Shown here: piece after piece, positions 40,057-61,026 of the stretch
Layout of the letters: every line of letters begins with the position of its first letter
How positions within the stretch are numbered: the first letter of the stretch is position 1
DNA from: Fidelibacterota bacterium
GTDB taxonomy: Bacteria > Fidelibacterota > UBA8477 > JABMPR01
Reading direction: 5' to 3'
Length of the DNA: 64,000 nt
NCBI GenBank assembly: GCA_024278595.1
Contig: JAJRSW010000099.1
Span: 5,573 to 69,572, forward strand
Notes under the pieces: model-generated
What the model was told of the DNA's origin: nothing
Seen by the model: the letters and a program-made list of their open reading frames with translations, nothing else
The model's database searches: none
Program-made: the position numbers and the translations under genes

Positions 40057-40178
40057 ATATTCCTGGTTAACATGATGTTCTTGTTGTTAATAGCTCCAGC
40101 CTCGAATTCTTCGGACAAATACTAATTGCAGTTCTAAAGTGGTTATTAAGTCCCAAATAATTATTATTATTCACAAAC

Positions 40179-43471: not shown

Positions 43472-43513
43472 ACGCCATTCTTCTAATCAAGAGTGGTCAG
43501 GTGAATTTTGAAT

Positions 43514-43786
43514 ATTGACGCCCCCGCAAAAAGGATTTGCAAAAACACGGAATATACCCTATGCGCAATAAATACAACAACTTATGACAAATATATCTAA
43601 ACCTATAAATAATAACACTCCGCGTCATTTCGACCAGCGGTCCCTGAGCTCTGTCGAAGGGCGGTCCCTGAGCTCTGTCGAAGGGCGGTCCCTGAGCTCT
43701 GTCGAAGGGCGGTCCCTGAGCTCTGTCGAAGGACTCAACGCCACGCCTCGCGGCCTGTGGTAGAGGGACTTTCTGCGGAGGCGTTA
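43514..43786 (-). repeat. Family-2 MITE-like element (copy 3, inverted orientation) with five 24-bp tandem units (four perfect, one variant)
   Basis: Ends ttgacgcccccgcaaaaag (43515-) and gagggactttctgcggaggcgt (-43783). Four perfect units of ggtccctgagctctgtcgaagggc and one flanking variant lie at 43625-43731. These create the artefactual ORF 43497-43907 (FDRAQGPP repeats). Confidence 0.85.
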
Positions 43787-44068
43787 AAATCGACCTTAAA
43801 ATATGCACATTGGCTGTGCTGAAAAGAATCGAATGAAGAAGTGAACATCTCGACCTGCGCAGGTTCAAAATTCGATACTCTACATTCAAAAAATGCTCCG
43901 AAGTCATAAAAAAGCACCAAAAGCTGCTTCACGCTATCGAAACCCAGGTTATATTTCGGGCGATGTCAGCTATTATCCTTCTGGAGTAAAAAAATATATC
44001 ATAGCAAGAATCGATGGGTCAAATATTAATCGATCTGTTAACAACCAATAAACAATGGTGGAACGAAA

Positions 44069-44893: not shown

Positions 44894-45077
44894 CTCCAGA
44901 ATATTAAGGGGTCCCTGCACTGCGTCTTCACCCTGCCGGTTTGGGCTTGCGCCTTCAGATTGTTTGTGATGGCAATAGGCCGACTCGATATAAGATAATC
45001 ACATTATCTTACTGCTGTTTTAGCACCCGCTCTTGAATCGTCTGGATAAGTTGAAAATATTTCCTCATTTTTCAAGC

Positions 45078-45400
45078 TTGATGCCCCCGCAGAAAGTCCC
45101 TCTCGCAGAGGCCGCAGAGCGTTGCATTGAGTCCTTCGACTGAGCTCAGGAACCGCCTGTCGAAATGGCGCAAAGTGTTGTTATTTATTGCTTTACGTGT
45201 ATTTGTCGTAAGCGGTTGTATTTAAAGGTTATAGGGCATATTCTGTGGTTTTCTAAATACTTTTTGCGAGCTCATCAAACTTGATGTCCCCGCAGAAAGT
45301 CCCTCGCCGACACGATTGTCGGGATGAGGATTTTAAGTGTGCCACACTGAGTTCATCGAAGTGTGCCACACTGAGTTCATCGAAGTGCAGAAAAATGAGG
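45078..45400 (+). repeat. Family-2 MITE-like element (copy 4, one 24-bp unit) followed by a second partial TIR and a 2x 24-bp array of a different unit
   Basis: 45078-45270: ttgatgcccccgcagaaagtccctctcgcagaggccgcagagcgttgcattgagtccttcg + one unit + AT arm + ctttttgcgag. 45281-45310: a second TIR-like ttgatgtccccgcagaaagtccctc. 45337-45384: the unit gtgtgccacactgagttcatcgaa repeated twice. Confidence 0.8.
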
Positions 45401-45677: not shown

Positions 45678-46856
45678 ATGACGATGACAGAATTACCCTT
45701 TGGCCTAAGTAAGCAAACCTTTGATGAATTACAGAAGTTATCAACTCCATTTATGCTGTTCGACTTAAATAGAATCGCAAAAAATATTTCCTTGTTAAAA
45801 AAGCATTTACCCCAGGCCCAGATATTCTACTCCATGAAAGCCAATAGCCTGCGACCTGTTTTGGATACCATGTTTCAAAATGGAACCGGATTTGAGATCA
45901 ATACGATGGAAGAATTATCCAGATTGGGTAAACTAGGAGATCTTCGACCGAATATCATCAATAGTTCAACCGTATTGTCTGCTACGGATATTCGTGGCTT
46001 TTATCATAGGGGTGTGCGCCAATTTTGTGCAGATCGGCGATCCCAATTAACGAATTTAGGGATCAATGCTCCAGGGGCTGAGGTTTTAATTCGGTTGAAG
46101 GTGCCTGAGGCAGGCAGCCGCTTTGCTGTAAATTCACGGTTTGGGGCAAAACCAGATCAAGTCTCCGAGCTGATTAGTTATGCAGAAGAAGTTGGCCTGA
46201 GGGTGAACGGTCTTCACTTTCATGTGGGATCCCAATGTTTAAATTCTGAAAATTGGAAAAGTGGAATACAGATGGCGGCTGATTGGTTCACTCAACACCC
46301 ACACCTGAAAATATTAAATGTCGGTGGGGGATTACCCTCCACTGAAAATGGGGATAGCACTTTAATCACTGAGATTTTGGGAGCAATCCAACAGACAGTG
46401 GAAACGGTGTTTGACAGGCCTCCGGAATTGTACATTGAATCAGGGCGCTTTTTGGTTGCAAATTCAGCAGTACTGGGATCGTCTGTGATCCAATTGGAAG
46501 CAGGGGCAGAACTCAGTATCGCGACTCTGGATATATCGGTATTTTCGGGATTGTTGGAGATCTTTGAAAGTAAACTTGCCATGGAGTATCCGGTCTGGTC
46601 AGATGGTGATGGTCCTCTTAGTACTTACCGATTAGAAGGGCCAACCTGTGCTGGAAATGATGTGTTGAGCCGACCCGTAAATTTATCAGAGCTGGTGGTT
46701 GACTATCGGTCAGGAGTTCCGTGTACGAAGGTCTACTTTGGAAATACGGGTGCTTATAGTATTGACTATGTCAGAGGCATTCAAAGCGGTTTCAATGGCT
46801 CACGAATTCCCAGCATCCTCACCTTAAAAGATTCGAAGGTGACAAAGTTTGGGTGA
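45678..46856 (+). CDS. PLP-dependent decarboxylase, fold-type III (Orn/Lys/Arg/DAP decarboxylase family 2)
   Basis: 392 aa. FYSMKANS (PLP-Lys motif, cf. YAVKAN), GLHFHVGSQ and EGPTCAGND (cf. GPTCDSxD substrate/dimer motif). Confidence 0.8.
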   Translation: MTMTELPFGLSKQTFDELQKLSTPFMLFDLNRIAKNISLLKKHLPQAQIFYSMKANSLRPVLDTMFQNGTGFEINTMEELSRLGKLGDLRPNIINSSTVLSATDIRGFYHRGVRQFCADRRSQLTNLGINAPGAEVLIRLKVPEAGSRFAVNSRFGAKPDQVSELISYAEEVGLRVNGLHFHVGSQCLNSENWKSGIQMAADWFTQHPHLKILNVGGGLPSTENGDSTLITEILGAIQQTVETVFDRPPELYIESGRFLVANSAVLGSSVIQLEAGAELSIATLDISVFSGLLEIFESKLAMEYPVWSDGDGPLSTYRLEGPTCAGNDVLSRPVNLSELVVDYRSGVPCTKVYFGNTGAYSIDYVRGIQSGFNGSRIPSILTLKDSKVTKFG

Positions 46857-47442
46857 GATCCAGGTAGAGATCCGTCCCGTCACCGATATAGCAGCTCAGC
46901 AACTGGAGTACCAGGTGTTCTTGGAGGCTGGCTATATAGATCCCAATCAGGAACAGCTGGTACTGGAATATGCAAAATACTCAAGATCAGAATTTATCAT
47001 TACCCGGGATGGCCCCCAGCTGACCGGTGTGGTTCGACTCATATATGCAAATGATGAGCGTCCCACACGGGGTCTGCCAACTCTGGAAAATTTTAATCTA
47101 TATGATGAGTGGCAAGCTAAAATAACACGATTAGCGACCCGCAGGCTGGGTGAATTTGGGACCCTGGCTGTTCTCAAAGCATATCGAGGAGGGCGCTCGA
47201 CTTATCTGCTAAAACAGAAGCTCATCCTCCACCCTGTTTTAAAAGGGTATCGATATGGGGTTAGTCTCATAGATGAGGGACTCCTGAAGCACCTGGTGAA
47301 AGGGGGCTACCCCCTTAAACAGATCGGCGATAAGCGTTATTATATGGGCTCTGTGACCGTACCTGTGCTGGGGAGTGTTTATCACCTACCCAGAACCTTG
47401 CGAACCTGGGTGTGGAACTTTATGTTACGCTCCGGGCGTTAA
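46849..47442 (+). CDS. Hypothetical protein of 197 aa, possibly a GNAT-fold N-acyl amino-acid/autoinducer-synthase-like acyltransferase
   Basis: Overlaps the decarboxylase by 8 nt, indicating translational coupling. Its 3' end overlaps the convergent radical-SAM gene by 4 nt. Similarity is weak. Confidence 0.45.
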   Translation: MGEIQVEIRPVTDIAAQQLEYQVFLEAGYIDPNQEQLVLEYAKYSRSEFIITRDGPQLTGVVRLIYANDERPTRGLPTLENFNLYDEWQAKITRLATRRLGEFGTLAVLKAYRGGRSTYLLKQKLILHPVLKGYRYGVSLIDEGLLKHLVKGGYPLKQIGDKRYYMGSVTVPVLGSVYHLPRTLRTWVWNFMLRSGR

Positions 47443-48845
47443 TGCTTCAATCTTTTAGCCGGGTAAAAATGTTCCCCCCAAATGATCATCTTTAACATGA
47501 AGAAAGCTAGTTTAGTGGATCCCATGACAATTCTGAACATGGTGCCAAGACTAAATTTATTCACCAAATAGCCCAAATTATTATTCACATAATTGATATA
47601 CAGACTGGAAAGTAACATCTGGAATAAATAGCTGCGGACGCTCATTTTTCCGGGGCGAATGATCATTTGTCCAAATGTCCAAAAATGGTAATCCTCTTTA
47701 TCGACCAGCAATCGATCTTTATATTCATGATAGATTGGGAGGTTAGGGAAGGGGGTTAAAGGGCTAAAAGTACATATTTCAGGTTTTAGCGTTCGCATAT
47801 ATTGCCTGAACAAACGAAAATCTGCCTGATCCCAGTCCGGGTGAAAAATAAAGGAAGCCCAACAATCCACTTTTATATCCTTAAGTAATTTACTGGCTTC
47901 CAAATTATCATCCACCGATGATTTTTTATGATAGTCAGCCAACTCACTATCTTTGAATGATTCGTAACCTACCAGCACAGCGCGAAGACCATTATGGGCA
48001 AATTGGGTTACTGCCTTTGTGTTGGTTAAAAGACCATGAACACTACCGTAACAAATGAAATTTTTTGAAATGTTTTCCGCTTCCAGGAGCGTACAGAACT
48101 TTTCAAGTCGCGGACCATTATTTAGAAAATCATTATCATAAATCATAATGGTCGGTTCCTGGATATCTTTGATCTGCTGGATCACCTCATTTAGGTCTAT
48201 ATCCACTTCATGGCCGCCTTCAATGCGCCAACGTAGACAGAAATGACAGCCCTTGCTGCACCCCAGTGAGGTTTGCATAATGGCAGCCGGCTGATAGCCA
48301 AAATAATTGTAATGTTGGCGGTAGACTTGAGTGGATTGGCGGTCTGGGACAATATATTCATTATAGCCCTTATTCCCTGAAAAAGCAAATTCAAGCTGTT
48401 TGCTGCGAATACCATCAATGATCGGTACGGCAGTACCAGATGCCAGGAGGGTGAAGAGTTGGCCAATGTTTGCCCGGGTGGTATACTGGAAAATGTGATC
48501 AATTTCAGGTTTAAAAAATGCCTCTGGAGCCAGATAAGTTTGGGTTCCTCCCACAATGGTAACGATGGCAGGTCGGATTTCTTTCACTTGCCTGGCCAGT
48601 TTGAGAGCTGCTGGTACATCCACACACAGGGTTGTGAAACCAACGACTTCCGGGTGCCATTTTTTGATAATATGGGGGAGTGATCCAGGATCATCGATCA
48701 TGAGATCAAGGATTCTGATGTCATGCTCATTTTTTAAAACAGCAGCAAGTATTTCAAGCCCGATCGGTTCGCTGAACATGAATTCGCCCAGGGTGACAGC
48801 CTGTTTCATTCTGGGAGGTCGAATAAGTAATACTTTCAATGTCAA
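47439..48845 (-). CDS. B12-binding radical SAM protein (class B cobalamin-dependent rSAM, putative methyltransferase), paralog 4
   Basis: 468 aa. N-terminal B12-binding Rossmann region LKVLLIRPP...ILDL. Radical-SAM cluster motif SLGCSKGCHFC (CxxxCxxC). Confidence 0.85.
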   Translation of the reverse strand: MTLKVLLIRPPRMKQAVTLGEFMFSEPIGLEILAAVLKNEHDIRILDLMIDDPGSLPHIIKKWHPEVVGFTTLCVDVPAALKLARQVKEIRPAIVTIVGGTQTYLAPEAFFKPEIDHIFQYTTRANIGQLFTLLASGTAVPIIDGIRSKQLEFAFSGNKGYNEYIVPDRQSTQVYRQHYNYFGYQPAAIMQTSLGCSKGCHFCLRWRIEGGHEVDIDLNEVIQQIKDIQEPTIMIYDNDFLNNGPRLEKFCTLLEAENISKNFICYGSVHGLLTNTKAVTQFAHNGLRAVLVGYESFKDSELADYHKKSSVDDNLEASKLLKDIKVDCWASFIFHPDWDQADFRLFRQYMRTLKPEICTFSPLTPFPNLPIYHEYKDRLLVDKEDYHFWTFGQMIIRPGKMSVRSYLFQMLLSSLYINYVNNNLGYLVNKFSLGTMFRIVMGSTKLAFFMLKMIIWGEHFYPAKRLKH

Positions 48846-48854
48846 TTGCTCCTG

Positions 48855-50180
48855 CTAAATGATATTGGGAGTGATCCTGCGCTTGATCTGTTGTTTATAA
48901 TACAAATTGACCATCAGATAAAAGAGGTGTCGTAAGGGGTGCCTCAGAAACCCGTAATGATAAAATACCCGACTTAAAATATTGGGAATGGAGAATACGT
49001 CCTCATATAGATCCCAATAAGCTTTTGTAAGCTCGTCAGCACTCATATTCTTGGGGTCGTGAACCGCAGTTGTACTATCATAGCTAAAGTAGTCGTGATT
49101 GATAATCCGGTCATCACGTAACATCTCAGCGTGAAACTCAGTGCCGGGAATGGGGGTTAGAATATAGAACCGTGGTACCACCACCCGATTTTCCCGTACA
49201 AATGCCGCAGTTGCCTGTATGGAAGCCAAAGTATCACCGTCAGCACCAACAACCATCTCGGTTGATATATCAATCCCCGCTTGACGAATCTTTTTGAGCT
49301 GTGAATGATACCTGGAAACTTTGCCCCAGCTTTTTCCCATGGCATTCATACTATCCTGGGAAATACTTTCTAAGCCAAAACTCAGCCCGATGCAGCCGCT
49401 GTCAGCCACTGCCTGTAGCAATTTATCGTTATCAGCCAAGGTGATTGAACATTGCGAGAACCATTCCATTTTCAGTTTAGAGATCTCCTGGCATAGTTCT
49501 ATAGCATAGGTCGGGTCAGAGACCAGGTTATCATCCAGGAGCAAAAACTTCTTAAATCCCAGAGACTTTATCTGACTGATGTCCCTGATCACGCTGGCTA
49601 TACTGCGTTTATAATAGCGTCTTTGATAGAGGCAATACACGGAACAAAAGGAGCAGGCGTGGGGACATCCACGGGCGGCCTGAACCGGGAGAAAATCACC
49701 GATAGATTTATCAAGCAGGAGTTCATAACGAGGCAGGGGGGGGTCAAATATGGCTAGCTGGCGATCATAGACCTTTTTTAGACAGCCATTTTCAAAATCC
49801 TGCAAGACTTCGGGCCATAGCTCATCTGCATCACCTACGATTACAGCATCACTATAATCCTGAGCCTCTTCCTGCATGAGACTGGCCATATACCCGCCGG
49901 TGATCACAGTTTTACCCAGGCGGTGAAATTCCTTAGCTATGTCAATGGATCGATGTACGGCATGTCCCATGGTACCGATACCGATCAAATTAGCATCCGT
50001 GTCGAAAGGGAGCTCGTCAATGGTCTCCAGACAGATCTCAACCTCCCAATGGTCAGGTGTAACGGCTGCCAGCAGGGGAAAGGTAAGCCCCACAAAATAC
50101 AAGCGCTTCTTTTTAATGACCTGCCCTTCCCGGTCGTATGGAGAGGGTTGGATGAACAGGACCTTGTATCGTTTTGGCAT
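48855..50180 (-). CDS. B12-binding radical SAM protein, paralog 3
   Basis: B12-binding domain plus ARGCPHACSFC (CxxxCxxC). The ORF track starts at 50228 (457 aa), overlapping the upstream gene by 47 nt. The likely true start is MPKRYKVLFIQP at 50180 (441 aa). Confidence 0.85.
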   Translation of the reverse strand: MPKRYKVLFIQPSPYDREGQVIKKKRLYFVGLTFPLLAAVTPDHWEVEICLETIDELPFDTDANLIGIGTMGHAVHRSIDIAKEFHRLGKTVITGGYMASLMQEEAQDYSDAVIVGDADELWPEVLQDFENGCLKKVYDRQLAIFDPPLPRYELLLDKSIGDFLPVQAARGCPHACSFCSVYCLYQRRYYKRSIASVIRDISQIKSLGFKKFLLLDDNLVSDPTYAIELCQEISKLKMEWFSQCSITLADNDKLLQAVADSGCIGLSFGLESISQDSMNAMGKSWGKVSRYHSQLKKIRQAGIDISTEMVVGADGDTLASIQATAAFVRENRVVVPRFYILTPIPGTEFHAEMLRDDRIINHDYFSYDSTTAVHDPKNMSADELTKAYWDLYEDVFSIPNILSRVFYHYGFLRHPLRHLFYLMVNLYYKQQIKRRITPNII

Positions 50181-50181
50181 A

Positions 50182-51579
50182 TTAGCTGGTCTTCGAAGGC
50201 TTGGCTGAGCATACAAACCATGCAGCAAATATCTTCAGCAAGTACTGGATCGTAACTATGGTAGCTCCCCGTGACAGTTTAAGGGTCTCCCAAACACCAT
50301 ATCTGGTCAGCATGCGATAAATACTGGATCCCCGCATGGTGATCTTATAATACAGTTTGACGATATTCCAATAATAGTTATGGGGTGTAAGTTTAGAGGG
50401 CTTTAGCACCAAATGAGCCAGGTCCCATTCTTCATAATTATCACGTTCCACAATCAAACTATCAACATAAGTTTCGAATATCTCAGTTCCCGGTAGTGGG
50501 GTGAGCGGCTGTAAATTAACAAAGATCAGGTCCAATTTCCGGATCCAGGCATAGAGCTTTTGGAAATCTTCGCCAGACCAATCAGGAGAGAGGATGAATG
50601 TACCATAACAATCAATCCCGTTCTCAGCCAAAATACGCACGGCCCTTTCACTGGTTTCCAAACTGGTCTTCTTGACGTAACTATCTAATTCATCCTGATC
50701 CCAGGACTCCAGTCCAACGATTACAGCCCGCAAACCAAGTGCTTTAAAACGGGTCATTACATCGGGATTGGTGGCAATAAAATCGGCCCGACCATAGATT
50801 AAAAATTGTTTTTGAATGTTGCCCAGCTCTAGTTTGTCACAAAACTCCAGGACACGCTCTCGACTTACCAGAAAGTTGTCATCCACAATATAGATCTCTG
50901 GTTCTGAAATTCCGGCAATTTCCTGGATCACATCATCGATGGGTCTGGCAAAATACTGTTCATCGGTGATCTGAATGCAAAAGCAAAAGTTACATGAGTA
51001 GGGACAGCCATATGATGTTTTGATCAGGGCACAGGGGTTATGAAACATGTAGTAATAGCTGGAGCGGTAGCGTCTCGTCAATTCACGAGCTGGGAAATAG
51101 TCTGGAAAAGAGATCGATTTCGCTGGGACCACTTTCAGCTGCGGATTCCAGAGCCCCGGAATTTCTGTGGTACTTTGATCAGTGGAAAGGCGATCAACCA
51201 ACTGGGGGAATGATAGGTGGGCATCGGCGGCAATGATATAGTCGATATGTGGGTCTTCATAGTCAGCCGGTTGAACTTCTGCATGAACCCCTCCGACCAC
51301 GATAGCACAGTCCGGCCTTATTGACTTGATTCGCCGGGCGTATTCCTTGATCAAATTGACATGGGTGATGTATCCTGTCAAGCCCACCAGGTCAGGGGTA
51401 TGTTTTTGAATAAAGTGTGCCAGAGTCTTCCGCTCCAGGATCAGGTCGATAATAATAACCTGGTGCTGTTTCGCGACGGAGGCGGCCATATATTCCAATT
51501 CAAGTGGTTCACAAACCATGACGTATTTTAGTCCGACTGTATTGGTCGGAGGTTTCGGGCGTACCAGCAGAATTTTCAT
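50182..51579 (-). CDS. B12-binding radical SAM protein, paralog 2
   Basis: 465 aa. N-terminus MKILLVRPKPP. Cluster motif SYGCPYSCNFC. Confidence 0.85.
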   Translation of the reverse strand: MKILLVRPKPPTNTVGLKYVMVCEPLELEYMAASVAKQHQVIIIDLILERKTLAHFIQKHTPDLVGLTGYITHVNLIKEYARRIKSIRPDCAIVVGGVHAEVQPADYEDPHIDYIIAADAHLSFPQLVDRLSTDQSTTEIPGLWNPQLKVVPAKSISFPDYFPARELTRRYRSSYYYMFHNPCALIKTSYGCPYSCNFCFCIQITDEQYFARPIDDVIQEIAGISEPEIYIVDDNFLVSRERVLEFCDKLELGNIQKQFLIYGRADFIATNPDVMTRFKALGLRAVIVGLESWDQDELDSYVKKTSLETSERAVRILAENGIDCYGTFILSPDWSGEDFQKLYAWIRKLDLIFVNLQPLTPLPGTEIFETYVDSLIVERDNYEEWDLAHLVLKPSKLTPHNYYWNIVKLYYKITMRGSSIYRMLTRYGVWETLKLSRGATIVTIQYLLKIFAAWFVCSAKPSKTS

Positions 51580-52211
51580 TGGTCAGATCCTGGCACCGTG
51601 GCGATCAAAAAGAAAATGGTAGGGACGAACCAAGCGGTTTTGACTGTAGAGATGCTCACATCCGGCATGAACTGATCTACCATAGCTCTCATTTCCTGGA
51701 TTGAAGGGTAGTGCGCTGAACCAGTCGTTATTTTGATCATCAATAAGCATAGTTGGTCATATAGATTATTTGCAGATGCATTTGCGACCAGCAGTGTGCC
51801 ACCAGGTTTCAGCTGATCTACCATCCTGCGGAGCGCTGTTGCCTGATCTTCATAATAGGGCAGAGTGTGACTGGCGATGATGAGATCATAGCGTTCTGTC
51901 ACCGAAAAATCCAGCACATCACTATGAATAAAATTTATATCAGGGTTTTCCTGGCGCGCTATCTTTAACATACCCCTGGAGTAATCCACGCCAGTCAGAT
52001 GCATGGATTGATTGTGAAAAATAACTCCTAGTTCCTGGAGTAATTGACCTGTACCACAGCCCATATCCAGGATGTTCAGCTCAGCTTTGGTTTTGGGCAT
52101 GGTCTGAATATAATTAATGATCATTTCCCGGGTGGGACCAAGGGACCACTTTTGGACCCAGAGTCGATTGTAGAATTTCGCCCAATAATCCCATAATATC
52201 CTGCTACTCAA
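51576..52211 (-). CDS. Class I SAM-dependent methyltransferase
   Basis: 211 aa. Motif I ILDMGCGTGQL and motif post-I LTGVDYS. Overlaps the downstream gene by 4 nt. Confidence 0.85.
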   Translation of the reverse strand: MSSRILWDYWAKFYNRLWVQKWSLGPTREMIINYIQTMPKTKAELNILDMGCGTGQLLQELGVIFHNQSMHLTGVDYSRGMLKIARQENPDINFIHSDVLDFSVTERYDLIIASHTLPYYEDQATALRRMVDQLKPGGTLLVANASANNLYDQLCLLMIKITTGSAHYPSIQEMRAMVDQFMPDVSISTVKTAWFVPTIFFLIATVPGSDQ

Positions 52212-52215
52212 AAGG

Positions 52216-53514
52216 CTAATTCCTGCCCAGTATTGATTGTAACAAAAAATGTCTCAGCCTGCTGTTATTAAATATTAATTGGAGGTAGAGCCGATAGAAT
52301 TGTAAATAAAAATTGAGGGTCCCCAGATTGGTTGGTTTGAGTACCAGATGCAGCATATCCCAATGCTTGCGGTTTTTGGTTAACAGGGATCGGGAATAGT
52401 CATCATATATTTTTGTACCTGGGAAGGGGGTGAAGATGGAGCTGGTAAAGAGCTCCAATTCATTCTTTCGGATCCAATTGCCTAAGGTCTTGAAGGTATT
52501 ACTTGTGGACTCAAGCGGCGCAATGAACAAAGCCGTACATTGGATACCAGCTTCCCGTAAAACTGTGGCACAGCGTTCATTTTGTTGGCTCGAAACGTTC
52601 TTTTCATAAGCCTGAAGGTCAGCATCAGCAAGGGTTTCAAATCCGATGATGATATCTATGACACCAACTGATCTCAATTCAGCAATGAGTTGGGGCTGTT
52701 GCGCAACAAAATCAGCGCGCCCATAAATTATATACCGCTTTTTGAGTGCTTCACTACGGTTCAGTTTGACAAAATCTTCAACCCGCTTTTCATCGATCAA
52801 AAAATCATCATCAACTATCCAGATCAGATCATGTTGGATGGATTTTATCTCATGGATAACTGCTTCCATGGGGCGGGCTGTGTATTTCCCATCATTTAAA
52901 AGACGGCAATAACAGAAATTACAGGAAAAGGGACAGCCCGCTGCAGATTTAACCAGAGCTGCTGAGCCATAATAGTGATAATGAAATTTTCGGCGATGTT
53001 TATAAAAATGAGATCGGTCAGGGAGGACGGTATCCTGAATAGCTGGTTGGAACCTTGGATTCATCTTCCAGTTGTCCCTTTCACGGTAGGTGATGCCGGG
53101 CAGCTTAGCCAGGTTTTTAAATTGATGTTGAATGAGTCCACGAAAGGTTGAATGGCCTCCTGAAAGTACAATGATATCAATATGAGCCGTTTGAAATTCC
53201 CTGAAATTGATCTCTGCATGGACACCACCCACCAGGACAGTGATATTGGAATTGAACTTTTTTATTATTTCTGCATAGCTGAGGATCCGGTCCTGGATGG
53301 AAATGTAGCCCGTGAGGGCAACCACACTCGGTTGATAGCTCCTGAGCGTTTTAATAAGCGAGCTTCTGTCAATGACCTCGTCATGGATTTTTGTCTCGAT
53401 CTTTTCAGCTCCGGCAATCGCTGCCAGATATTCAAGATCCAGGGGCTCGGTCCGGATCGGATTAGCCAGAGAAAAAAGACTGCTATACCTGGGGCGGACC
53501 AACAGGATTCTCAT
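52216..53514 (-). CDS. B12-binding radical SAM protein, paralog 1
   Basis: 432 aa. N-terminus MRILLVRPRYS. Cluster motif AAGCPFSCNFC. Confidence 0.85.
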   Translation of the reverse strand: MRILLVRPRYSSLFSLANPIRTEPLDLEYLAAIAGAEKIETKIHDEVIDRSSLIKTLRSYQPSVVALTGYISIQDRILSYAEIIKKFNSNITVLVGGVHAEINFREFQTAHIDIIVLSGGHSTFRGLIQHQFKNLAKLPGITYRERDNWKMNPRFQPAIQDTVLPDRSHFYKHRRKFHYHYYGSAALVKSAAGCPFSCNFCYCRLLNDGKYTARPMEAVIHEIKSIQHDLIWIVDDDFLIDEKRVEDFVKLNRSEALKKRYIIYGRADFVAQQPQLIAELRSVGVIDIIIGFETLADADLQAYEKNVSSQQNERCATVLREAGIQCTALFIAPLESTSNTFKTLGNWIRKNELELFTSSIFTPFPGTKIYDDYSRSLLTKNRKHWDMLHLVLKPTNLGTLNFYLQFYRLYLQLIFNNSRLRHFLLQSILGRN

Positions 53515-54476
53515 GTATTCCCATTCCTAAAGACATTAAACGAGGTGGTGGGCATTTTGTATGATACCAGGGGCATTGCGATCTGAATCAGTTTATTTAG
53601 CATTTTGTTGGCGTGGTGAACGTGAATAAATTTCTCTTCCATCTGGCAGCCCAGTTTTAACTTTATTGCTTCACCTGTCTGCCCCAGGTCAACAATATCA
53701 CAGCCGCCTGAGATGCCCTTCCTGATGATCCAAAGTAGTATGTTAAGATAAATATCATATTGCTTGAGTCTGGTATATTTAATACCAGTGAACATAAAGA
53801 TCAAGCGCTTTGAATCCTGATATAATTGGATGAACCCCAGCAGGTCACCTGCGATCTGAAAGCGATAAATATCAGCTGGAAATTGGCGAAAAAACTCGAT
53901 TGATAATTTTTCAAGCTTATAATCCGATCTTCCATGAACATCTAAATAGAGTTGATACATGTCACCTGAGAAATCTTGATTGTCAGTCAGGTGGGTAATT
54001 TCCACACGTTGCCATTTCTCCAGGGCTTTGGTCATACGGTAGCGATAGTGACTCCTTAATCGGGTGAGATATGCATCGAATGTGTCCCAATGGATCTGCA
54101 GGATACAACTTGGGAGCGTATGGCCACTGGAAAATCCGGTGATTTGTTGCTCTGAACTATTCAGGATGATCTTGAGCCCTCTATGAGCCAAAAGATTTTC
54201 TTTTATACTTTGGGTCAGTGTGGGATGGTATCCGCAAAAAGCCAGTGAGCAGGGGATACCTACTATCCTGGTGGGGTATTTCAGGCTTAGACCAAGATAG
54301 GTGAACAAGTTCAGGTGTATTTTATATGAGACCGCTACACATGGTTCTTGGGGATCATTGGAGAAAAAGTAACGTTGGTTACAAAAATTGGTTTCCTCAA
54401 GTATCTCCAGAGAGTCCTTTTTTAAAAAGGGGTTAGCTGAATTCACTGGAAAAGAAAAATCTGGAATTCCCCTCAC
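53511..54476 (-). CDS. Hypothetical protein of 321 aa, possibly a FemAB/GNAT-fold acyltransferase
   Basis: Overlaps the downstream rSAM gene by 4 nt, placing it in the same operon. No secure motif. Confidence 0.45.
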   Translation of the reverse strand: MRGIPDFSFPVNSANPFLKKDSLEILEETNFCNQRYFFSNDPQEPCVAVSYKIHLNLFTYLGLSLKYPTRIVGIPCSLAFCGYHPTLTQSIKENLLAHRGLKIILNSSEQQITGFSSGHTLPSCILQIHWDTFDAYLTRLRSHYRYRMTKALEKWQRVEITHLTDNQDFSGDMYQLYLDVHGRSDYKLEKLSIEFFRQFPADIYRFQIAGDLLGFIQLYQDSKRLIFMFTGIKYTRLKQYDIYLNILLWIIRKGISGGCDIVDLGQTGEAIKLKLGCQMEEKFIHVHHANKMLNKLIQIAMPLVSYKMPTTSFNVFRNGNT

Positions 54477-54507
54477 ATTTAATACTGATCGTAGTGTGAT
54501 GGCTAGC

Positions 54508-55701
54508 TCAGATATTAACTGAATAAACTTTATAAGATTTTAACGGCTTGATCTTATCCTGTGACCACTTGTTGATCATTCCCTTTGAACTGATGTTCGT
54601 ATCCACAACCCACCCGGTTTCGCAGGTTTCAAACTTGTTTTTAGTCTCTTTGTAGCAGGCTGCCATCAGATTGATCCCGATACCTGATCGTTGGTATTCA
54701 GGTAATACTGCAACCTGTGCCCCCCGGAAAGATCGTACTGAAGCGCTGGAGAACTTGTTCTTTAAATAGGCTATAAGTCCAATTCTCCCTCCGGCTGGGA
54801 TCAATTCATTGAAATCTGGATACCAGAGTAAATAACCGACTGGTTTTCCAGCTATCTCAGCTATTAATAGATTTTCCGGTCTTAAAATGGGTTTAAACAT
54901 CTCTAACATTTCATAGTCTTCGGCGACTTGGCGGTGAAAATAAAAGGGATGTTTGGCAAAAGCTGCATTGCTCAGTGAATTATAGATTACAGACTCTGAG
55001 GCCAAATTGGAGAGGTCAATATAGCGAATATTAAGTCCTGCAGATTTTTCCGGAAGTTTTAGGGAGCTAAACTCTTTTGCAAATTGCCCCATTCCTTTTT
55101 GATAGGTGTCCAGCTCGGAGAAATTGGTGGCATGAGCAGAAAGGAGGGTGTCATAATAGCCTGGATTCCAGGCATTTCCGAAGCTCATGGGTAGGTCAAA
55201 GCCGCGAGAAAGAATGCCAAGGCCGTAATTGGGGTGGCCGTTAATGCCAAAGACAATTTGCTTAGCTCCCCGTTCTTTTCCGGCTCGTGAAGCTTCTTCA
55301 ATGATTATAGGGACGGTACCAGGGTTGTTCAGGGATTCAAAAAATGCCACCATGATCATATCAGGGGCTTGATCTGACCAGATAAGGGTTGCCACAGCCT
55401 GGGGAATCTCATCAATAATAAGAAGGGGTTGAATGTATTTATCTTTCGAAAAGGCAGATTTACCAGTTAGGATACCTCTCATGGTGGGGACCATGGAAGC
55501 CCGATAATATGGATTACCCTGATAGAGGTCTTTTATAAATTTGAAATACTGATTCAGATTACTGGTGGAACATTGAACTATTTGCACAGTATCGTTTCCC
55601 TTTAAATATTTTAGACCGGTTGAAGAAACAATCCAAGGGAAAAAACTAACTCTGCAGTAATATTTTAGAATTTTCCACAGCGTGGCAATTAATCGAGACA
55701 A
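54508..55701 (-). CDS. GNAT-fold acyltransferase-like protein (397 aa, two-domain)
   Basis: C-terminal VLPEYQRSGIGINLMAAC resembles the GNAT acyl-CoA-binding motif Q/RxxGxG/A. The ORF-track start at 55701 is TTG, 5 nt from the repeat. The true start may lie downstream. Confidence 0.5.
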   Translation of the reverse strand: MSRLIATLWKILKYYCRVSFFPWIVSSTGLKYLKGNDTVQIVQCSTSNLNQYFKFIKDLYQGNPYYRASMVPTMRGILTGKSAFSKDKYIQPLLIIDEIPQAVATLIWSDQAPDMIMVAFFESLNNPGTVPIIIEEASRAGKERGAKQIVFGINGHPNYGLGILSRGFDLPMSFGNAWNPGYYDTLLSAHATNFSELDTYQKGMGQFAKEFSSLKLPEKSAGLNIRYIDLSNLASESVIYNSLSNAAFAKHPFYFHRQVAEDYEMLEMFKPILRPENLLIAEIAGKPVGYLLWYPDFNELIPAGGRIGLIAYLKNKFSSASVRSFRGAQVAVLPEYQRSGIGINLMAACYKETKNKFETCETGWVVDTNISSKGMINKWSQDKIKPLKSYKVYSVNI

Positions 55702-55705
55702 CTAA

Positions 55706-55883
55706 CCTGAATAATTCATAGCCACTAAGTCACGAAGCCACCAAGTTTTAAAAAATATATGCTTATCAAAAATTATCACTCACAGATGCAAATAATTCTG
55801 TTTAAAATGACCTTGTTCATAACTTTAATAATCTTCGTGGCTTAGTGTCCTCGTGGTAATAATTCATGAATAATGCAGGTTAG
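55706..55883 (+). repeat. Copy C of the ~175-bp family-1 repeat. The CCTGAATAATTCAT end abuts the start of the rSAM/GNAT operon.
   Basis: cctgaataattcatagccactaagtcacgaag...caaataattctgtttaaaatgaccttgttcataactttaataatcttcgtggcttagtg...gtaataattcatgaataatgcagg. Internal inverted repeats cacgaag/cttcgtg and ATTCATGAAT. Confidence 0.85.
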
Positions 55884-56214: not shown

Positions 56215-56988
56215 ATGGAGTCGATACTCGCAAGCTACATGGCCAGGTTGGAGGCCTGGAGACTAGACCACTTCAAAGCTGAATTTCTGGTGGAAGACCA
56301 CCCTGATCTGAGCCAGAAATTTCATCCTTCAGGAGCAGCCAAACCGTTTCATGGCCTGACAGTGGTGACCTTTATTGATCCCGAATCGATGCTATACCAG
56401 GCACTCTGTGATTATCAAAACCGGATCAGAACCGCACTGAAACAAGCTGGATTAGAAGCTATATTTAGCTTTCTTGACCCAAAATCATTTCATATGACCC
56501 TATGTGATATCGTGGCCGGACCTGACCCAGTTCCAACTCAGCAGACAGCTAGGATTCTCCAAGCCGCCGGTAGGTGTTTTCCCAGTATAGGAAAAATTCC
56601 TGATCTATCCGGCACCCTGTCTGGTTTGGGCGTGGATGCTAGTCTGCTGCTCCTGGTTCAGTTTGAGGAGACCGCCCTGAAGGCTTGTCTGGATATTGAA
56701 CACCTGCTCAAGGAAGGTCTGGGGGTGGATGAAAGATCATTCTTAGGGCATGTCAGTCTGGCTTATTTTGTCCAGGTACCCGGATCGGTTCTCCAGCAGA
56801 TAAAGTGTGTATTGGACCCATTTAAGGGAGAATCATTAGGTCAATTTCCAATCACAAAAATTGATCTTTGCTATTTTCGGGACATGCATAGCTATCAACC
56901 TCGCATGACATTTGATCTCCGCGATGGTAGTTTTGCCATCTCTCGCGACTATTTGAGCAGTCGATCTCAAAATAAGAAAGCACACTGA
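56215..56988 (+). CDS. 2H phosphoesterase superfamily protein (LigT/cyclic phosphodiesterase-like)
   Basis: 257 aa with two H-x-T/S-x motifs, FHMTLCD and GHVSLAY, at appropriate spacing. Confidence 0.6.
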   Translation: MESILASYMARLEAWRLDHFKAEFLVEDHPDLSQKFHPSGAAKPFHGLTVVTFIDPESMLYQALCDYQNRIRTALKQAGLEAIFSFLDPKSFHMTLCDIVAGPDPVPTQQTARILQAAGRCFPSIGKIPDLSGTLSGLGVDASLLLLVQFEETALKACLDIEHLLKEGLGVDERSFLGHVSLAYFVQVPGSVLQQIKCVLDPFKGESLGQFPITKIDLCYFRDMHSYQPRMTFDLRDGSFAISRDYLSSRSQNKKAH

Positions 56989-56994
56989 AAAGCC

Positions 56995-58554
56995 ATGAAT
57001 TCCTATTTAAAAATTGACCAGCCAACCCACTCTCTGGTTGTTGTGGATCTGAAAAACGACCGGATGGATGGCCAGATCGCCGCCTGTGGTCTCCAGGGCA
57101 TTATTAACCGTGATTCCACTGAAAAACTTTATATCACGAATACCTATTGTTTCGACAATTTAGGGGGTGGAAAAACTCAAATTCAAATTGCAGGGCGCTT
57201 GCTCGAGACCCTTTTCTCAGATATCCCCACTGAGCGACTCTCACCAGAGGCCAACAAGTGCTGGCCTGGTTTTCTCGCTGCGCTGAATCGTTTTCGAGGT
57301 GTTGTAAAGGGCTTGATCATCTGGGACCCGACCTTGGAAGGGGCTACAATTGAAGCTGCTACCACCCTGGCAGGACAGACCGATGGTTTGATCTGTTCAC
57401 CTGAACTTTCAGAAGCATTACAGGACTTTAAATTCCCACTCATCAAGGATTTTCGCGAAGAGGGTTTTGAAAATAATATTGAATGTCTGGACTGGCTGTT
57501 GGCTAATTGTTTTGAAAAATGTGCAACAGCCCTGGCCTTTACCTGGTCACATATGACAACCGACTCCACCAGTTGGGGGGCGGCGAATAAGGATTATGTA
57601 ATTGCCTCAGGCTTGTTTAGTTTTTATCTGGATATTACTGATGAGGTGGAGCGGGAAGCCTACAAATGTGTTTTGGAACGCTATCCTCCAGGTACACCCA
57701 TTCTGGGGTGGACGGATGAAAGGTGGGCCGATGCCCTTTTTGCCAAACTTGGTTATTTTATGGTTCCCTGTATTTCGGTGGAGAACCTGTCGGTTCATGC
57801 ATCTTTTCCCTCAGTCCACGGAACTCAAGCGGATCCCAAACCCGCTGAACTGGTTCCTAATGGAGTATATATTGCCATGCATGTGGCTGATGGTGATAAT
57901 CTCCTGCATAGTATGGTCTACGAACCTGACTGTATCATGCGCAGCAGGGCTTACGGAGAGATTCCCCTAACCTGGATCCTTAATCCTGGTTTGACGGATC
58001 TGGCTCCACGACTCTTCGATTGGTACTATGAGGGGCTGGGGAATCAGGAAATGGCAGCCATGCTCAGCGATGGTCATCCCTTTAGTGATCGCTATGCTGC
58101 CTTCCGGCAGTATTGCGATTTTTGCAGCTATTATCTCAAAAAAGCGGGCATGCTCACGCTAAAACAGATGGAAGAATCAGAGGCGGTTGCCTGGAATGTG
58201 CAGCCCTATGTCATGAACAGCGGGTATGCCGGCACCTGCCCAAAAGGGATCCGGGTTGATGATTACCACATGGATAATGAATGTTTTCACATTGGCAGCA
58301 TCAAGCATACTGATGCTGGAAGTATTCGCGAGCGGGTGAAAAATAATCCTGGAGAGGGTCCACTCTTTTATAATATTTTCTGTGGAACCGCCATTATTGA
58401 TCTCCCTCAATTGGTCAAGGATATTGCTGAAGACCTGTGGGCTGGACAGGCACAGGATGGTGTGCAGTATTTTTTTCTACGCAGTATGGATCTGGCGGCA
58501 ACCTATCGGGTTTATAAAGGGCTGCCAGTGAAACCCCGACCTGCCAAAGCATGA
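56995..58554 (+). CDS. Hypothetical protein of 519 aa, family unknown
   Basis: Starts 7 nt after the 2H gene, so it is probably co-transcribed. No signal peptide and no recognisable motifs. Confidence 0.5.
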   Translation: MNSYLKIDQPTHSLVVVDLKNDRMDGQIAACGLQGIINRDSTEKLYITNTYCFDNLGGGKTQIQIAGRLLETLFSDIPTERLSPEANKCWPGFLAALNRFRGVVKGLIIWDPTLEGATIEAATTLAGQTDGLICSPELSEALQDFKFPLIKDFREEGFENNIECLDWLLANCFEKCATALAFTWSHMTTDSTSWGAANKDYVIASGLFSFYLDITDEVEREAYKCVLERYPPGTPILGWTDERWADALFAKLGYFMVPCISVENLSVHASFPSVHGTQADPKPAELVPNGVYIAMHVADGDNLLHSMVYEPDCIMRSRAYGEIPLTWILNPGLTDLAPRLFDWYYEGLGNQEMAAMLSDGHPFSDRYAAFRQYCDFCSYYLKKAGMLTLKQMEESEAVAWNVQPYVMNSGYAGTCPKGIRVDDYHMDNECFHIGSIKHTDAGSIRERVKNNPGEGPLFYNIFCGTAIIDLPQLVKDIAEDLWAGQAQDGVQYFFLRSMDLAATYRVYKGLPVKPRPAKA

Positions 58555-58693
58555 CCGGAGTTGTAGGGCCCGAGGCTGGGTTGACAGTTTGATCTCACAC
58601 AAATTGCCGTTGGATGGGTTTGAATTCGGGATCGATCTGCTGGTGCGAGCTGCCGATCAGGTTAATAAAGTAATGATTTATCCAGAGGACTAG

Positions 58694-59623
58694 ATGCTTG
58701 AGCTGAAAGATAAATGGGTCTGGGATTTCTGGTTTTGCCGGGAAGCTGATTCATATCACATTTTTTACCTGCAAGCTCCCAGATCTTTAGGTGATGAACG
58801 GCTCCGACACTTCAACGCCAGTATTGGTCATGCAAGCTCAACTGATTTGATCAACTGGAGCATCCTGCCAGATGCCATTGGTCCGGGAATAAAGGGTGAA
58901 TGGGATGATCTAGCTACGTGGACAGGTTGTACAATCCATAAGGATGGGGAGTGGTATCTTTTCTATACCGGAGTCAATCAGGCTGACAGTGGTCTCGTGC
59001 AAAGAATCGGTGTTGCAATTTCAAAAGATCTGATAAGCTGGAAGAAGTATGCCGGGAATCCTGTGATTGAAGCAGACCCCAGGTGGTACGAACTCCTGAA
59101 TTTGAATGCCTGGCATGATCAGGCCTGGCGGGATCCCTGGGTGTTTGAATACGATGGTCAGTTCCATGCTTTCATAACCGCTCGAGTTAAAGCTGGACCG
59201 ACTGATGGTCGAGGGGTCATAGCCCATGCGATTTCAAAGGACATCCTAGATTGGAATGTGCAGGCACCAGTAACTGAACCCGGAGATTTTGGACAGTTGG
59301 AGGTTCCCCAGTTGGTTGAGGTGGAGCGGAAACCCTGTCTGATCTTTAGCACTGATAAATTTTCACATTCAAGAGCTCTGCTTGAGCGGACCGGAAAACC
59401 ACCGATTACCGGGACAGCCTGTTACATGGGTGAAACACCGCTGGGTCCCTTTACCAGGCATGATGATCCCTGGCTGTTCGAAAATAGCGGTGGAACACTA
59501 TATAGCGGGAAGTTCATTGAAGCTACTGAGCTTGACTGGACCTTTATGGCCTTCGAAAATTACGCGGACAATGGTGAATTCATTGGCCGGATCACCAACC
59601 CTTTCACCATCAAATCTCCATAG
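58694..59623 (+). CDS. Five-bladed beta-propeller glycoside hydrolase, GH32-like (clan GH-J; beta-fructosidase-like)
   Basis: 309 aa. KWVWDFWF (cf. WMNDPNG nucleophile block), YHIFYLQAP (cf. YHLFYQYNP), IGHASSTDLINW (cf. WGHATSKDLVHW), WRDPWVF (RDP motif) and LEVPQL (EC-like acid/base). Confidence 0.55.
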   Translation: MLELKDKWVWDFWFCREADSYHIFYLQAPRSLGDERLRHFNASIGHASSTDLINWSILPDAIGPGIKGEWDDLATWTGCTIHKDGEWYLFYTGVNQADSGLVQRIGVAISKDLISWKKYAGNPVIEADPRWYELLNLNAWHDQAWRDPWVFEYDGQFHAFITARVKAGPTDGRGVIAHAISKDILDWNVQAPVTEPGDFGQLEVPQLVEVERKPCLIFSTDKFSHSRALLERTGKPPITGTACYMGETPLGPFTRHDDPWLFENSGGTLYSGKFIEATELDWTFMAFENYADNGEFIGRITNPFTIKSP

Positions 59624-59624
59624 T

Positions 59625-60953: not shown

Positions 60954-61026
60954 AACAAACTGATTGACTTCTAAACAAATATAAATATATTTAAACCGAT
61001 TTAAATAACTTTAAATACATTTAAAA

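Follow-up and report, generated by a model that had tools for sequence, protein, structure and literature searches.

A seven-gene cassette of radical SAM enzymes, a methyltransferase and two GNAT-superfamily transferases, conserved across anaerobic bacteria of many phyla

The DNA analysed here, hereafter referred to as the window, is a stretch of 64,000 nucleotides (nt) from a Fidelibacterota bacterium (contig JAJRSW010000099.1), and the system under study is an operon of seven minus-strand genes located at positions 47439-55701. The operon encodes four radical S-adenosylmethionine (SAM) enzymes (rSAM_A to rSAM_D), a class I SAM-dependent methyltransferase (MT) and two proteins of the GNAT superfamily, and it is a copy of a fixed, self-contained cassette that is kept across anaerobes of many phyla. 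In other words, known enzyme families occur here in a combination that has not been described before and that is widely distributed. As for its function, we favour, with a confidence that falls slightly short of an even chance, a pathway in which an amine would be aminoacylated from aminoacyl-tRNA, N-acylated, and then O- or N-methylated and radical-tailored in up to four steps. An earlier note on this DNA, made from the sequence alone, had singled out the operon as a candidate biosynthetic or modification cluster; the existence of the operon is confirmed by the present analysis, and several of the functional claims of that note had to be revised.

Layout and distribution of the cassette

In the order of their transcription, established from the listing of open reading frames (ORFs) and their translations, the genes of the cassette are the following:

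54508-55587, minus strand: tandem GNAT N-acyltransferase as judged from PF00583 and the predicted AlphaFold2 (AF2) fold, 359 amino acids (aa); the mechanically called ORF extends to a TTG at 55701
53511-54476, minus strand: Fem-fold double-GNAT transferase as judged from the AF2 fold and a marginal PF13480 match, 321 aa, candidate aminoacyl-tRNA-dependent aminoacyl transferase
52216-53514, minus strand: rSAM_D, HpnR/BchE-like radical SAM enzyme with B12 domain, 432 aa (PF04055 2.7e-11, PF02310 2.1e-10; motif CPFSCNFC)
51576-52211, minus strand: class I SAM-dependent MT, 211 aa (Methyltransf_25 2.4e-18)
50182-51579, minus strand: rSAM_C, HpnR/BchE-like radical SAM enzyme with B12 domain, 465 aa (PF02310 4.6e-20, PF04055 1e-13; motif CPYSCNFC)
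48855-50180, minus strand: rSAM_B, distinct radical SAM lineage with a Rossmann-type N-domain, 441 aa (PF04055 1.2e-13); the mechanically called ORF extends to 50228
47439-48845, minus strand: rSAM_A, HpnR/BchE-like radical SAM enzyme with B12 domain, 468 aa (PF04055 1.5e-13, PF02310 3.9e-13; motif CSKGCHFC)

The earlier note had described seven minus-strand genes tightly coupled by 4-nt overlaps. The seven genes are indeed tightly packed, but just two junctions, Fem/rSAM_D and MT/rSAM_C, overlap by 4 nt, the others being gaps of 1 nt (rSAM_C/rSAM_B), 4 nt (rSAM_D/MT), 9 nt (rSAM_B/rSAM_A) and 31 nt (GNAT/Fem). The class I MT that it had placed in the operon and the four CxxxCxxC strings that it had quoted are all present in the translations. 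Translation of the GNAT probably starts at the GTG at 55587, giving 359 aa, and not at the TTG at 55701; a database protein of the same length (P0001) is 100% identical to the window protein from the GTG on. Similarly, rSAM_B probably starts at the ATG at 50180, which gives the length of its homologs. No riboswitch or leader was found 5' of the operon in the window or in seven Clostridia loci, a scan for sigma-70 promoters and terminators returned the same counts as shuffled sequence, and the defence-system models of PADLOC gave just generic weak matches (PDC-M51A at 32-40 bits and the mad2 methyltransferase domain). None of the cassette proteins carries a clear transmembrane helix.

When the GNAT protein was used as query, 75 relatives were retrieved, none of which bore a name other than 'hypothetical' or 'GNAT family'; their hosts were, among others, Electrothrix, Desulfobulbus, Clostridia, Oxobacter and Myxococcota. 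When one genome per GTDB species was scanned, 188 species representatives among the pattern matches were found to encode the GNAT, and a metagenome scan with the GNAT alignment yielded 162 further loci. The neighbourhood comparison across relatives that the earlier note had proposed was carried out on 162 fetched loci (cited below by L numbers) belonging to two independent collections, whose ORFs were labelled by means of the window proteins. All seven families are found in 58 of the 162 loci, 46 of which preserve exactly the order of the window, and six families are found in 35 more; loci with fewer families are mostly contig ends. Because the same gene set recurs in 162 loci of two independent collections, the arrangement is far beyond what chance would produce. 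On the Clostridia side the hosts include Alkaliphilus, Anaerovirgula, Sedimentibacter, Tissierella, Acidaminobacter, Desulfosporosinus, Clostridium tunisiense and C. punense; other hosts are cable bacteria, Calditrichales, Kiritimatiellia, Lentisphaerales, Sumerlaeota, KSB1 and metagenome-assembled genomes (MAGs) of the PVC group. Compared with the window proteins, the median identity is 57% for rSAM_B, 47-48% for rSAM_C and rSAM_A, and 33-38% for rSAM_D, MT, Fem and GNAT. The cassette would have spread horizontally among anaerobic bacteria.

The cassette also occurs in shorter versions. rSAM_A is missing from nine complete loci, which are six-gene variants, and cable bacteria (Electrothrix) encode only GNAT, Fem, rSAM_D and MT; in L001, L013 and L033, rSAM_D lies beside the other three. 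Since these four genes stand alone in cable bacteria, they would represent the functional core of the system, with rSAM_C, rSAM_B and rSAM_A as an extension module. The genes that flank the cassette differ from locus to locus, the exceptions being decarboxylases (discussed below), an EamA small-metabolite transporter directly downstream of the cassette in 11 loci, and BacA downstream in five Tissierella-type loci; the ABC (ATP-binding cassette) ATPases near the cassette are generic homologs only.

Some local peculiarities were also recorded. One Electrothrix locus (L001:7360-9788) carries, upstream of the four-gene core, two paralogs of about 250 aa (73% identical, no Pfam match) that are separated by a YoeB/Phd toxin-antitoxin pair, and the core itself is interrupted there by an opposite-strand gene for a metallo-beta-lactamase-fold protein. 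Two divergent genes (315 and 175 aa, no Pfam match) lie 5' of GNAT in the Marinimicrobia relatives L083 and L084 (L084:8247-9718) and are absent from the window.

Predicted properties of the seven proteins

All four rSAMs contain the CxxxCxxC motif within a Radical_SAM domain (PF04055, 1e-11 to 1e-13 with Pfam), and in alignments of 66-106 orthologs of each enzyme the three motif cysteines are at least 95% conserved. The earlier note had described four paralogous B12-binding enzymes of 430-470 aa. Four rSAMs with an N-terminal B12-type domain are indeed present, and yet one of them stands apart: when the profile check suggested in that note was run, PF04055 was found in 4/4, and the B12-binding domain PF02310 scored above its 32.1-bit cut-off in rSAM_A (49.7 bits), rSAM_C (72.1) and rSAM_D (40.9) but below it in rSAM_B (21.5). 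Consistently, A, C and D are 27-34% identical to one another over their full length and B is about 21% identical to them; by sequence, A, C and D group as mutual paralogs and B as a separate lineage. Nor do the four enzymes reflect a local expansion of paralogs: each locus holds one member per rSAM group, which identifies four old ortholog groups, kept in a fixed order across phyla. rSAM_B is the most conserved protein of the cassette, its orthologs being 53-80% identical across loci (42-67% for those of rSAM_C), and rSAM_D is the only rSAM retained in the four-gene cassette of cable bacteria.

Conservation outside the motif differs among the four. In rSAM_D it covers, besides the radical SAM cysteines, one adjacent cysteine and little more; rSAM_A keeps one extra cysteine (C74), and rSAM_C several extra Cys and His residues. 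Across 90 orthologs of rSAM_B, conservation of at least 95% extends to three cysteines outside the motif (C199, C260 and C279) and to a histidine of the N-domain (His89, in a GTMGH segment); the cysteines may hold an auxiliary Fe-S cluster and His89 may be a cobalamin ligand. The C-terminal tails of A, C and D are basic and hydrophobic, with 9-11 Lys and Arg residues vs 1-3 Asp and Glu.

Concerning curated families, the hopanoid C-3 methylase HpnR (TIGR04367) is the best full-length match of A, C and D and covers model positions 1-415, with scores of 141.6 bits for A, 200.6 for C and 158.1 for D (58.7 for B) against a cut-off of 650; BchE (TIGR02026, the anaerobic Mg-protoporphyrin monomethyl ester cyclase) scores 78-122 bits against 481, the highest value being that of rSAM_D. 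The best curated matches of rSAM_B are ApyD and PhpK, at about 88 bits and far under their cut-offs. The closest solved structures are AprD4, TokK and CysS, all with weak E-values; AprD4 (6fd2) is the closest entry for rSAM_B, and the short list of PDB sequence matches of rSAM_C includes TokK and CysS. NCBIfam cut-offs are reached by none of the four rSAMs and not by MT.

These scores bear directly on whether the operon is simply a known hopanoid or bacteriochlorophyll pathway with orthologs of HpnR, HpnJ or BchE. HpnR and BchE do rank at the top of the NCBIfam models; nevertheless, this explanation is refuted, because the scores (140-200 vs 650 and 78-122 vs 481 bits) and the genomic context both contradict it, and we consider its probability negligible. 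The hosts are mostly Clostridia, and no hopanoid or chlorophyll genes were found among the scanned window ORFs or the enriched neighbours of the loci. The possibility raised in the earlier note, that a well-characterised pathway would lie behind the operon, can thus be set aside: the best NCBIfam score is that of HpnR, 200 bits vs 650, with no hopanoid context.

The same searches bring up maturation enzymes of peptides that are made on ribosomes and modified after translation (RiPPs). B12-dependent rSAMs that C-methylate peptides are used in the polytheonamide and bottromycin pathways, and ApyD and rSAM_ocin_1 are among the weak NCBIfam matches of the cassette, so that the rSAMs could in principle act on a ribosomal peptide. 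However, all these scores lie far under the cut-offs, in 80 loci no conserved ORF of 20-90 aa was found within 1.2 kb of the cassette (the apparent 'families' were ends of cassette genes or antisense shadows), and the cassette is without a protease, a RiPP recognition element or a dedicated exporter. We therefore regard a RiPP cluster as very improbable.

As for the other three proteins, the closest curated families of MT are BioC (76 bits vs 185), Tam and CpaM, none of which is reached, and its closest PDB entries are juvenile hormone acid O-methyltransferase and trans-aconitate methyltransferase. The earlier note had grouped the remaining two as uncharacterised acyltransferase-like (GNAT/Fem-like) proteins. 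Both do belong to the GNAT superfamily, but they are unlike each other, one being a predicted tandem GNAT and the other a predicted Fem-fold double GNAT. In the 359-aa protein, PF00583 matches the C-terminal half with 26.6 bits vs a 20.7 cut-off (residues 263-373 of the mechanical ORF), and an AF2 model built from the homolog alignment (pLDDT, the model confidence score, 89.7) contains two GNAT folds. Its top PDB folds, all tandem GNATs with TM (structural similarity) scores of about 0.55-0.62, are a glucosamine N-acetyltransferase of C. acetobutylicum (5kf2), a clavulanate tandem GNAT (2wpw) and MshD (1ozp); weak sequence matches are to N-alpha-acetyltransferases.

The 321-aa Fem-like protein matches PF13480 (Acetyltransf_6) marginally, with 22.6 bits vs a cut-off of 22. 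Its AF2 model, again from the homolog alignment (pLDDT 92.2), predicts a Fem double-GNAT fold, namely two GNAT domains with a cleft between them, and the top folds retrieved with it are all aminoacyl-tRNA-dependent: Sbb17 and Sba18 (9wqx and 9wqy; TM 0.60-0.62), FemX and the MprF/aminoacyl-phosphatidylglycerol (PG) synthases, with a Foldseek probability of 1.00 and TM scores of 0.5-0.62. Sbb17 and Sba18 are peptide synthases that were solved bound to streptothrisamine. Enzymes of the aminoacyl-tRNA-dependent class share a C-terminal catalytic lysine (FemX Lys305, DhpH Lys329) and a positively charged tRNA-binding helix (PMC12945691). In an alignment of 130 homologs of the Fem-like protein, K272 (motif K-x-K-L-G), the candidate counterpart of that lysine, and residues R141, Y144 and R145 of a basic helix are at least 95% conserved.

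The presence of FemX among the top folds raises the alternative that the cassette modifies a macromolecule or its precursor, such as the peptidoglycan stem peptide, a protein or a tRNA-bound amino acid. This would agree with the adjacency of BacA in the five Tissierella-type loci, with the weak likeness of the tandem GNAT to N-alpha-acetyltransferases and with the basic tails of the rSAMs, which could bind RNA. Yet the cassette is found in Gram-positive and Gram-negative phyla, whose cell walls differ, it has no conserved cell-wall or ribosomal neighbours, and its linkage to decarboxylases and an aminotransferase better fits a small amine. We hold a macromolecular target to be distinctly improbable, although less so than a RiPP.

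A possible pathway and its alternatives

According to the pathway that we favour, the starting substrate would be a primary amine, provided in several lineages by a dedicated decarboxylase; in the window the source may be a Lys/Orn-decarboxylase-like enzyme, and elsewhere the polyamine or amino-acid pool of the cell. The Fem-like enzyme would aminoacylate this amine with aminoacyl-tRNA as donor, and the new alpha-amine would be acylated from acyl-coenzyme A (acyl-CoA) by the tandem GNAT, following the logic of MshC and then MshD. MT would add an O- or N-methyl group, and the HpnR-like enzymes D, C and A would methylate unactivated carbons by way of methylcobalamin, with rSAM_B carrying out a different radical step. 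MT and rSAM_D would complete the core product, which rSAM_C, rSAM_B and rSAM_A would elaborate. The earlier note had proposed an amine- or amino-acid-derived, C-methylated product, and this proposal fits the evidence gathered here; the chemistry it sketched left out aminoacyl-tRNA, to which the Fem-like protein points.

The cassette is repeatedly and independently linked to an amine-forming enzyme, in three decarboxylase arrangements and one reductase-aminotransferase fusion. The first arrangement is that of the window, where, as the earlier note had reported, the 3' end of the operon converges on two plus-strand genes:

45678-46856, plus strand: fold-III pyridoxal phosphate (PLP) decarboxylase, 392 aa, convergent with the cassette (PF02784 2.1e-36)
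46849-47442, plus strand: FeeM-like GNAT of N-acyl amino acid synthase type, 197 aa (PF21926 FeeM, 31.2 bits vs a cut-off of 27)

The two genes share an 8-nt overlap, and the FeeM-like gene overlaps rSAM_A by 4 nt at their 3' ends. The decarboxylase has as its best PDB match a Lys/Orn decarboxylase (5gjm, 7.3e-38) and scores 104 bits vs 298 for LysA and 74.5 vs 478 for TIGR03099 in NCBIfam; the FeeM-like protein scores 36.8 bits vs 112 for TIGR03694. The pair is retained, in the same convergent position, in the nearest relatives, L084 and L085 (GNAT 58% identical), being preceded in L084 by an MMPL transporter, and was found beside the cassette in none of the other loci, about 160 in number. 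The decarboxylase is a possible lineage-specific supplier of the amine, and the FeeM-like gene a possible lineage-specific accessory.

The second arrangement is found in nine loci (L021, L027, L029, L035, L074, L081, L098, L101 and L112) of cable bacteria, Kiritimatiellia, Lentisphaerales, KSB1 and metagenomes, where the gene immediately upstream of GNAT, in the same orientation, encodes a pyruvoyl decarboxylase of the AdoMet_dc family (PF02675, 5.4e-21). The protein reaches 56 bits, under the equivalog cut-off of 75.6, and no spermidine-synthase (speE) motif was found beside its gene.

The third arrangement came from a search of 1.84 billion representative proteins with a profile of the Fem-like alignment, which gave 349 matches at or below 1e-30, three of them fusions. 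In one of these (P0331), tandem GNAT and Fem form a single chain, which supports the Fem and GNAT reactions as consecutive steps. Its gene belongs to a minimal operon of 70% GC (L167:8868-13539, also L168) that consists of a LysA-like fold-III PLP decarboxylase, the GNAT-Fem fusion and one HpnR-like B12 rSAM, with no methyltransferase; the decarboxylase precedes the fusion with a 4-nt overlap. The link to a PLP decarboxylase drawn in the earlier note gains weight from L167 and L168, where a different enzyme of this kind is translationally coupled to GNAT-Fem, but the pair of the window is otherwise confined to L084 and L085.

The other two fusions join a B12-binding domain to Fem (P0298) and, in a protein of 1282 aa (P0334), Fem to a PigE-like class III aminotransferase and an acyl-acyl-carrier-protein (acyl-ACP)-reductase-like domain, the latter matching the PigE N-domain and a cyanobacterial long-chain acyl-ACP reductase (6jzq, 1e-7). 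The locus of P0334 (L086:232-10833) has a low GC content (36%) and also encodes rSAM_B-like and rSAM_C-like enzymes, a tandem GNAT, a cytochrome P450 and an ABC transporter. A more distant Fem-like gene, annotated as 'GNAT family' (26% identity over partial length), lies on plasmid pC052_E of Nostoc sp. C052 (L170:5176-19423), surrounded by genes for short-chain dehydrogenases/reductases, an NOS oxygenase, a fatty acid desaturase, a class III aminotransferase, an acyl-CoA/ACP dehydrogenase, a glycosyltransferase, a formyltransferase and a DevBCA-type exporter; this looks like a separate lipid-type cluster.

The acceptor could be a soluble amine of the polyamine type, a reading favoured by the EamA transporter and by the genes for the AdoMetDC-like and Lys/Orn-decarboxylase-like enzymes. 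Alternatively, the cassette would tailor a membrane aminolipid. In this case the acceptor would be an amine or hydroxyl anchored to a lipid (a fatty amine, an N-acyl diamine that the FeeM-like protein and the decarboxylase would make, or the head group of a phospholipid, as for MprF), and the HpnR-like rSAMs would methylate its alkyl chains. Several observations favour such a lipid-anchored acceptor: among curated families, A, C and D, whose tails are basic and hydrophobic, match the lipid C-methylase HpnR best over their full length; MprF is among the top folds of the Fem-like protein; P0334 fuses Fem to an aminotransferase and a domain related to long-chain acyl-ACP reductase; a FeeM-like N-acyl synthase is encoded in the window, with an MMPL transporter in L084; BacA follows the cassette in five loci; and the distant Nostoc gene has a desaturase, a class III aminotransferase and a DevBCA exporter encoded around it. 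On the other hand, the absence of a clear transmembrane helix from the cassette proteins, HpnR scores of just 140-200 bits vs 650, the lack of lipid genes near most loci and the EamA transporter after the cassette in 11 of them speak against it; in addition, the fusion and the Nostoc cluster involve only distant relatives (23-31% identity), and nothing similar appears in a 2026 review of lipid-modifying radical SAM enzymes (PMC13459092). An aminolipid is in our judgement unlikely, while being the strongest of the competing explanations.

A different division of labour among the rSAMs is suggested by fusions within the cassette, where MT is joined in frame to rSAM_C in Acidaminobacter-type loci (L023, L031 and L058) and to rSAM_D in Gudongella-type loci (L065 and L080). 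MT might set one O- or N-methyl group, to which D, C and A would add one carbon each (methyl to ethyl to isopropyl to tert-butyl), so that the number of rSAMs would determine the size of the alkyl group. CysS and TokK, which are among the few PDB sequence matches of rSAM_C, add methyl groups sequentially. Besides the fusions, which occur in two Clostridia lineages, the mutual paralogy of A, C and D agrees with this scheme, as do the natural variants with one (cable bacteria), two (without rSAM_A) and three HpnR-like rSAMs. Nevertheless, the argument proceeds from gene counts and fusions alone, it has no place for rSAM_B, and the paralogs are old and divergent (27-34% identity) and could equally well act at different sites. 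Such an alkyl ladder appears to us improbable, ranking between the aminolipid and the macromolecular target.

Returning to the tRNA-dependent aminoacylation and acylation of an amine, a number of points weigh against this pathway as well. Its chemistry is deduced from gene content and folds, and the order of its steps is assumed. The tRNA dependence of the Fem-like protein is suggested by a similarity of predicted fold with TM scores of about 0.6; the protein has no NCBIfam match and no PDB sequence match with a profile, and its match to PF13480 is only marginal. Cobalamin binding, predicted for A, C and D, is doubtful for rSAM_B. As far as the amine is concerned, most Clostridia loci are without an amine-forming gene, and the AdoMetDC-like protein could be a plain housekeeping neighbour, in spite of its score under the equivalog cut-off and of the lack of a speE motif nearby. 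Moreover, the window decarboxylase lies on the strand opposite to the cassette, and since the cassette is flanked on either side by genes syntenic with L084, the decarboxylase could owe its adjacency to inheritance and not to function.

Genomic setting, related systems and significance

The rest of the window provides indications on the host. The TypA protein encoded at 36349-38181 shares 87-94% identity with its counterparts in Candidatus Marinimicrobia MAGs, and the host was assigned to the Marinimicrobia accordingly; a search for HIP1, made to test for a cyanobacterial origin, returned 0 sites. Among the encoded proteins there is a type IX secretion sorting domain, and genes of the pyruvate:ferredoxin oxidoreductase type point to an anaerobic lifestyle. 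A cobalamin riboswitch (Rfam RF00174, 70.6 bits; 34416-34602, minus strand) lies upstream of a gene for a TonB-dependent receptor with a Plug domain (32267-34387, minus strand), which suggests that the organism imports corrinoids, in keeping with a B12-dependent cassette. The earlier note had also drawn attention to a PduO-type cobalamin adenosyltransferase; the gene is real (21461-22015, plus strand; PF01923, 2.1e-57), but its relevance to the operon was rejected, as it is 25 kb distant and concerns the wrong form of the cofactor. PduO-type enzymes make adenosylcobalamin, and class B methylases are not known to use this form.

A similar revision applies to the repeat that abuts the operon start. 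The repeat exists (55703-55860), about 115 nt upstream of where GNAT probably starts, but an element of the same kind, also about 160 nt long, recurs at 36038-36192 (91-92% identical); being dispersed and intergenic, the repeat was rejected as a regulatory part of the operon. Given its short inverted ends, cACTAAGyCACGAAG, it looks like a miniature inverted-repeat transposable element (MITE). A second repeat family, which contains tandem 24-nt units (TCGAAGGGCGGTCCCTGAGCTCTG), is found at 31998-32256, 40171-40334, 43509-43749 and 45071-45305, one copy lying just upstream of the PLP decarboxylase gene; an ORF of 136 aa (43497-43907) that overlaps one array is probably spurious. Further genes of the window include a hybrid histidine kinase (40571-43471, plus strand) with an N-terminal VUPS (vitamin uptake-like sensor) domain, PAS domains and a receiver, and a divergent carbohydrate set at 56215-62043 (2H/DUF1868, a GxGYxYP putative glycosidase, GH32, an MGH1-like hydrolase and a LacI regulator). 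This set is mostly syntenic with L084, reflecting a general synteny around the cassette in Marinimicrobia relatives.

No description of the cassette was found in the literature, including reviews of lipid-modifying rSAMs (PMC13459092) and of aminoacyl-tRNA-dependent enzymes (PMC12945691), and comparison with known systems reveals partial likenesses. As a whole, the cassette would work much as if the MshC/MshD logic were combined with Fem-type tRNA-dependent enzymes of natural products and with pathways that use several class B rSAMs, such as thienamycin or cystobactamid. In mycothiol synthesis, MshC and MshD act in succession to join an amino acid to an amine and to acetylate the alpha-amine by a tandem GNAT, and the cassette tandem GNAT has MshD (1ozp, 2c27) among its closest structural neighbours, at about 13% identity; however, MshC is an ATP-dependent ligase related to Cys-tRNA synthetase and not a Fem-fold enzyme, and the pathway is without radical SAM or methylation steps. 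The Fem-fold transferases of natural-product pathways (Orf11/Sbb17/Sba18 of the streptothricin BD-12 type, DhpH-C/DhpK, VlmA and PacB) are likewise double GNATs and transfer an aminoacyl group from tRNA to a small-molecule amine (PMC12945691), and dehydrophos synthesis includes a methyl-ester step by the O-methyltransferase DhpI; unlike the cassette, these systems are antibiotic clusters of actinomycetes, and their enzymes are 12-13% identical to the Fem-like protein. The review of this enzyme class does not contain the term 'radical SAM' and links none of its members to a B12 rSAM (PMC12945691). Pathways with class B rSAMs acting in numbers or iteratively (thienamycin ThnK/L/P, TokK, cystobactamid CysS, gentamicin GenK/GenD1 and bacteriochlorophyll BchQ/BchR) share with the cassette the N-terminal B12 domain and the CxxxCxxC motif, and their enzymes methylate unactivated carbons; these enzymes are, however, about 650-680 aa long vs 430-470 for those of the cassette, which are nearest to the HpnR/BchE type, and the cassette is compact and present in about 190 species of many phyla, unlike lineage-restricted antibiotic clusters.

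With regard to the lipid enzymes, HpnR is the closest full-length curated relative of A, C and D, yet at 141-200 vs 650 bits, with no hopanoid genes, and the cassette hosts are not known hopanoid producers. MprF and the aminoacyl-PG synthases resemble the Fem-like protein in using aminoacyl-tRNA, through a Fem-type double GNAT, on an envelope lipid, but MprF carries a large membrane flippase domain and the cassette protein is soluble, with no transmembrane helix. Finally, the exosortase-A-associated pair (TIGR03099, TIGR03694) resembles the neighbours of the cassette in the window in that a fold-III PLP decarboxylase adjoins a FeeM-like acyltransferase, and differs from them in score (74.5 vs 478 and 36.8 vs 112 bits).

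The cassette is thus carried by about 190 species representatives of at least eight phyla, including cable bacteria and the abundant ocean group Marinimicrobia, and its proteins retrieved from public databases bear generic names only. Class B rSAMs perform some of the hardest methylations, few of their substrates are known, and the cassette offers four conserved ortholog groups of rSAMs with a ready handle for genetics. Several hosts are cultured and sequenced, so the product can be sought directly; cultured hosts include Alkaliphilus transvaalensis ATCC 700919, Clostridium tunisiense TJ, Sedimentibacter acidaminivorans DSM 24004, Tissierella creatinini BN11 and Acidaminobacter hydrogenoformans DSM 2784. 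The Fem-fold tRNA-dependent transferase, together with the decarboxylase link, provides a concrete chemical hypothesis. It is a further and doubtful step, which we take tentatively, to propose a widespread new class of metabolites, that is, amines that would receive an amino acid from tRNA and an N-acyl group and would then be extended one carbon at a time by MT, up to three B12 rSAMs and a fourth radical enzyme. If true, Fem-type tRNA-dependent chemistry and radical methylation by cobalamin enzymes would be united in one pathway for the first time, and the four-, six- and seven-gene versions of the cassette would yield a graded series of products; if the product were a component of the membrane or envelope of sediment anaerobes, it might serve as an environmental biomarker.

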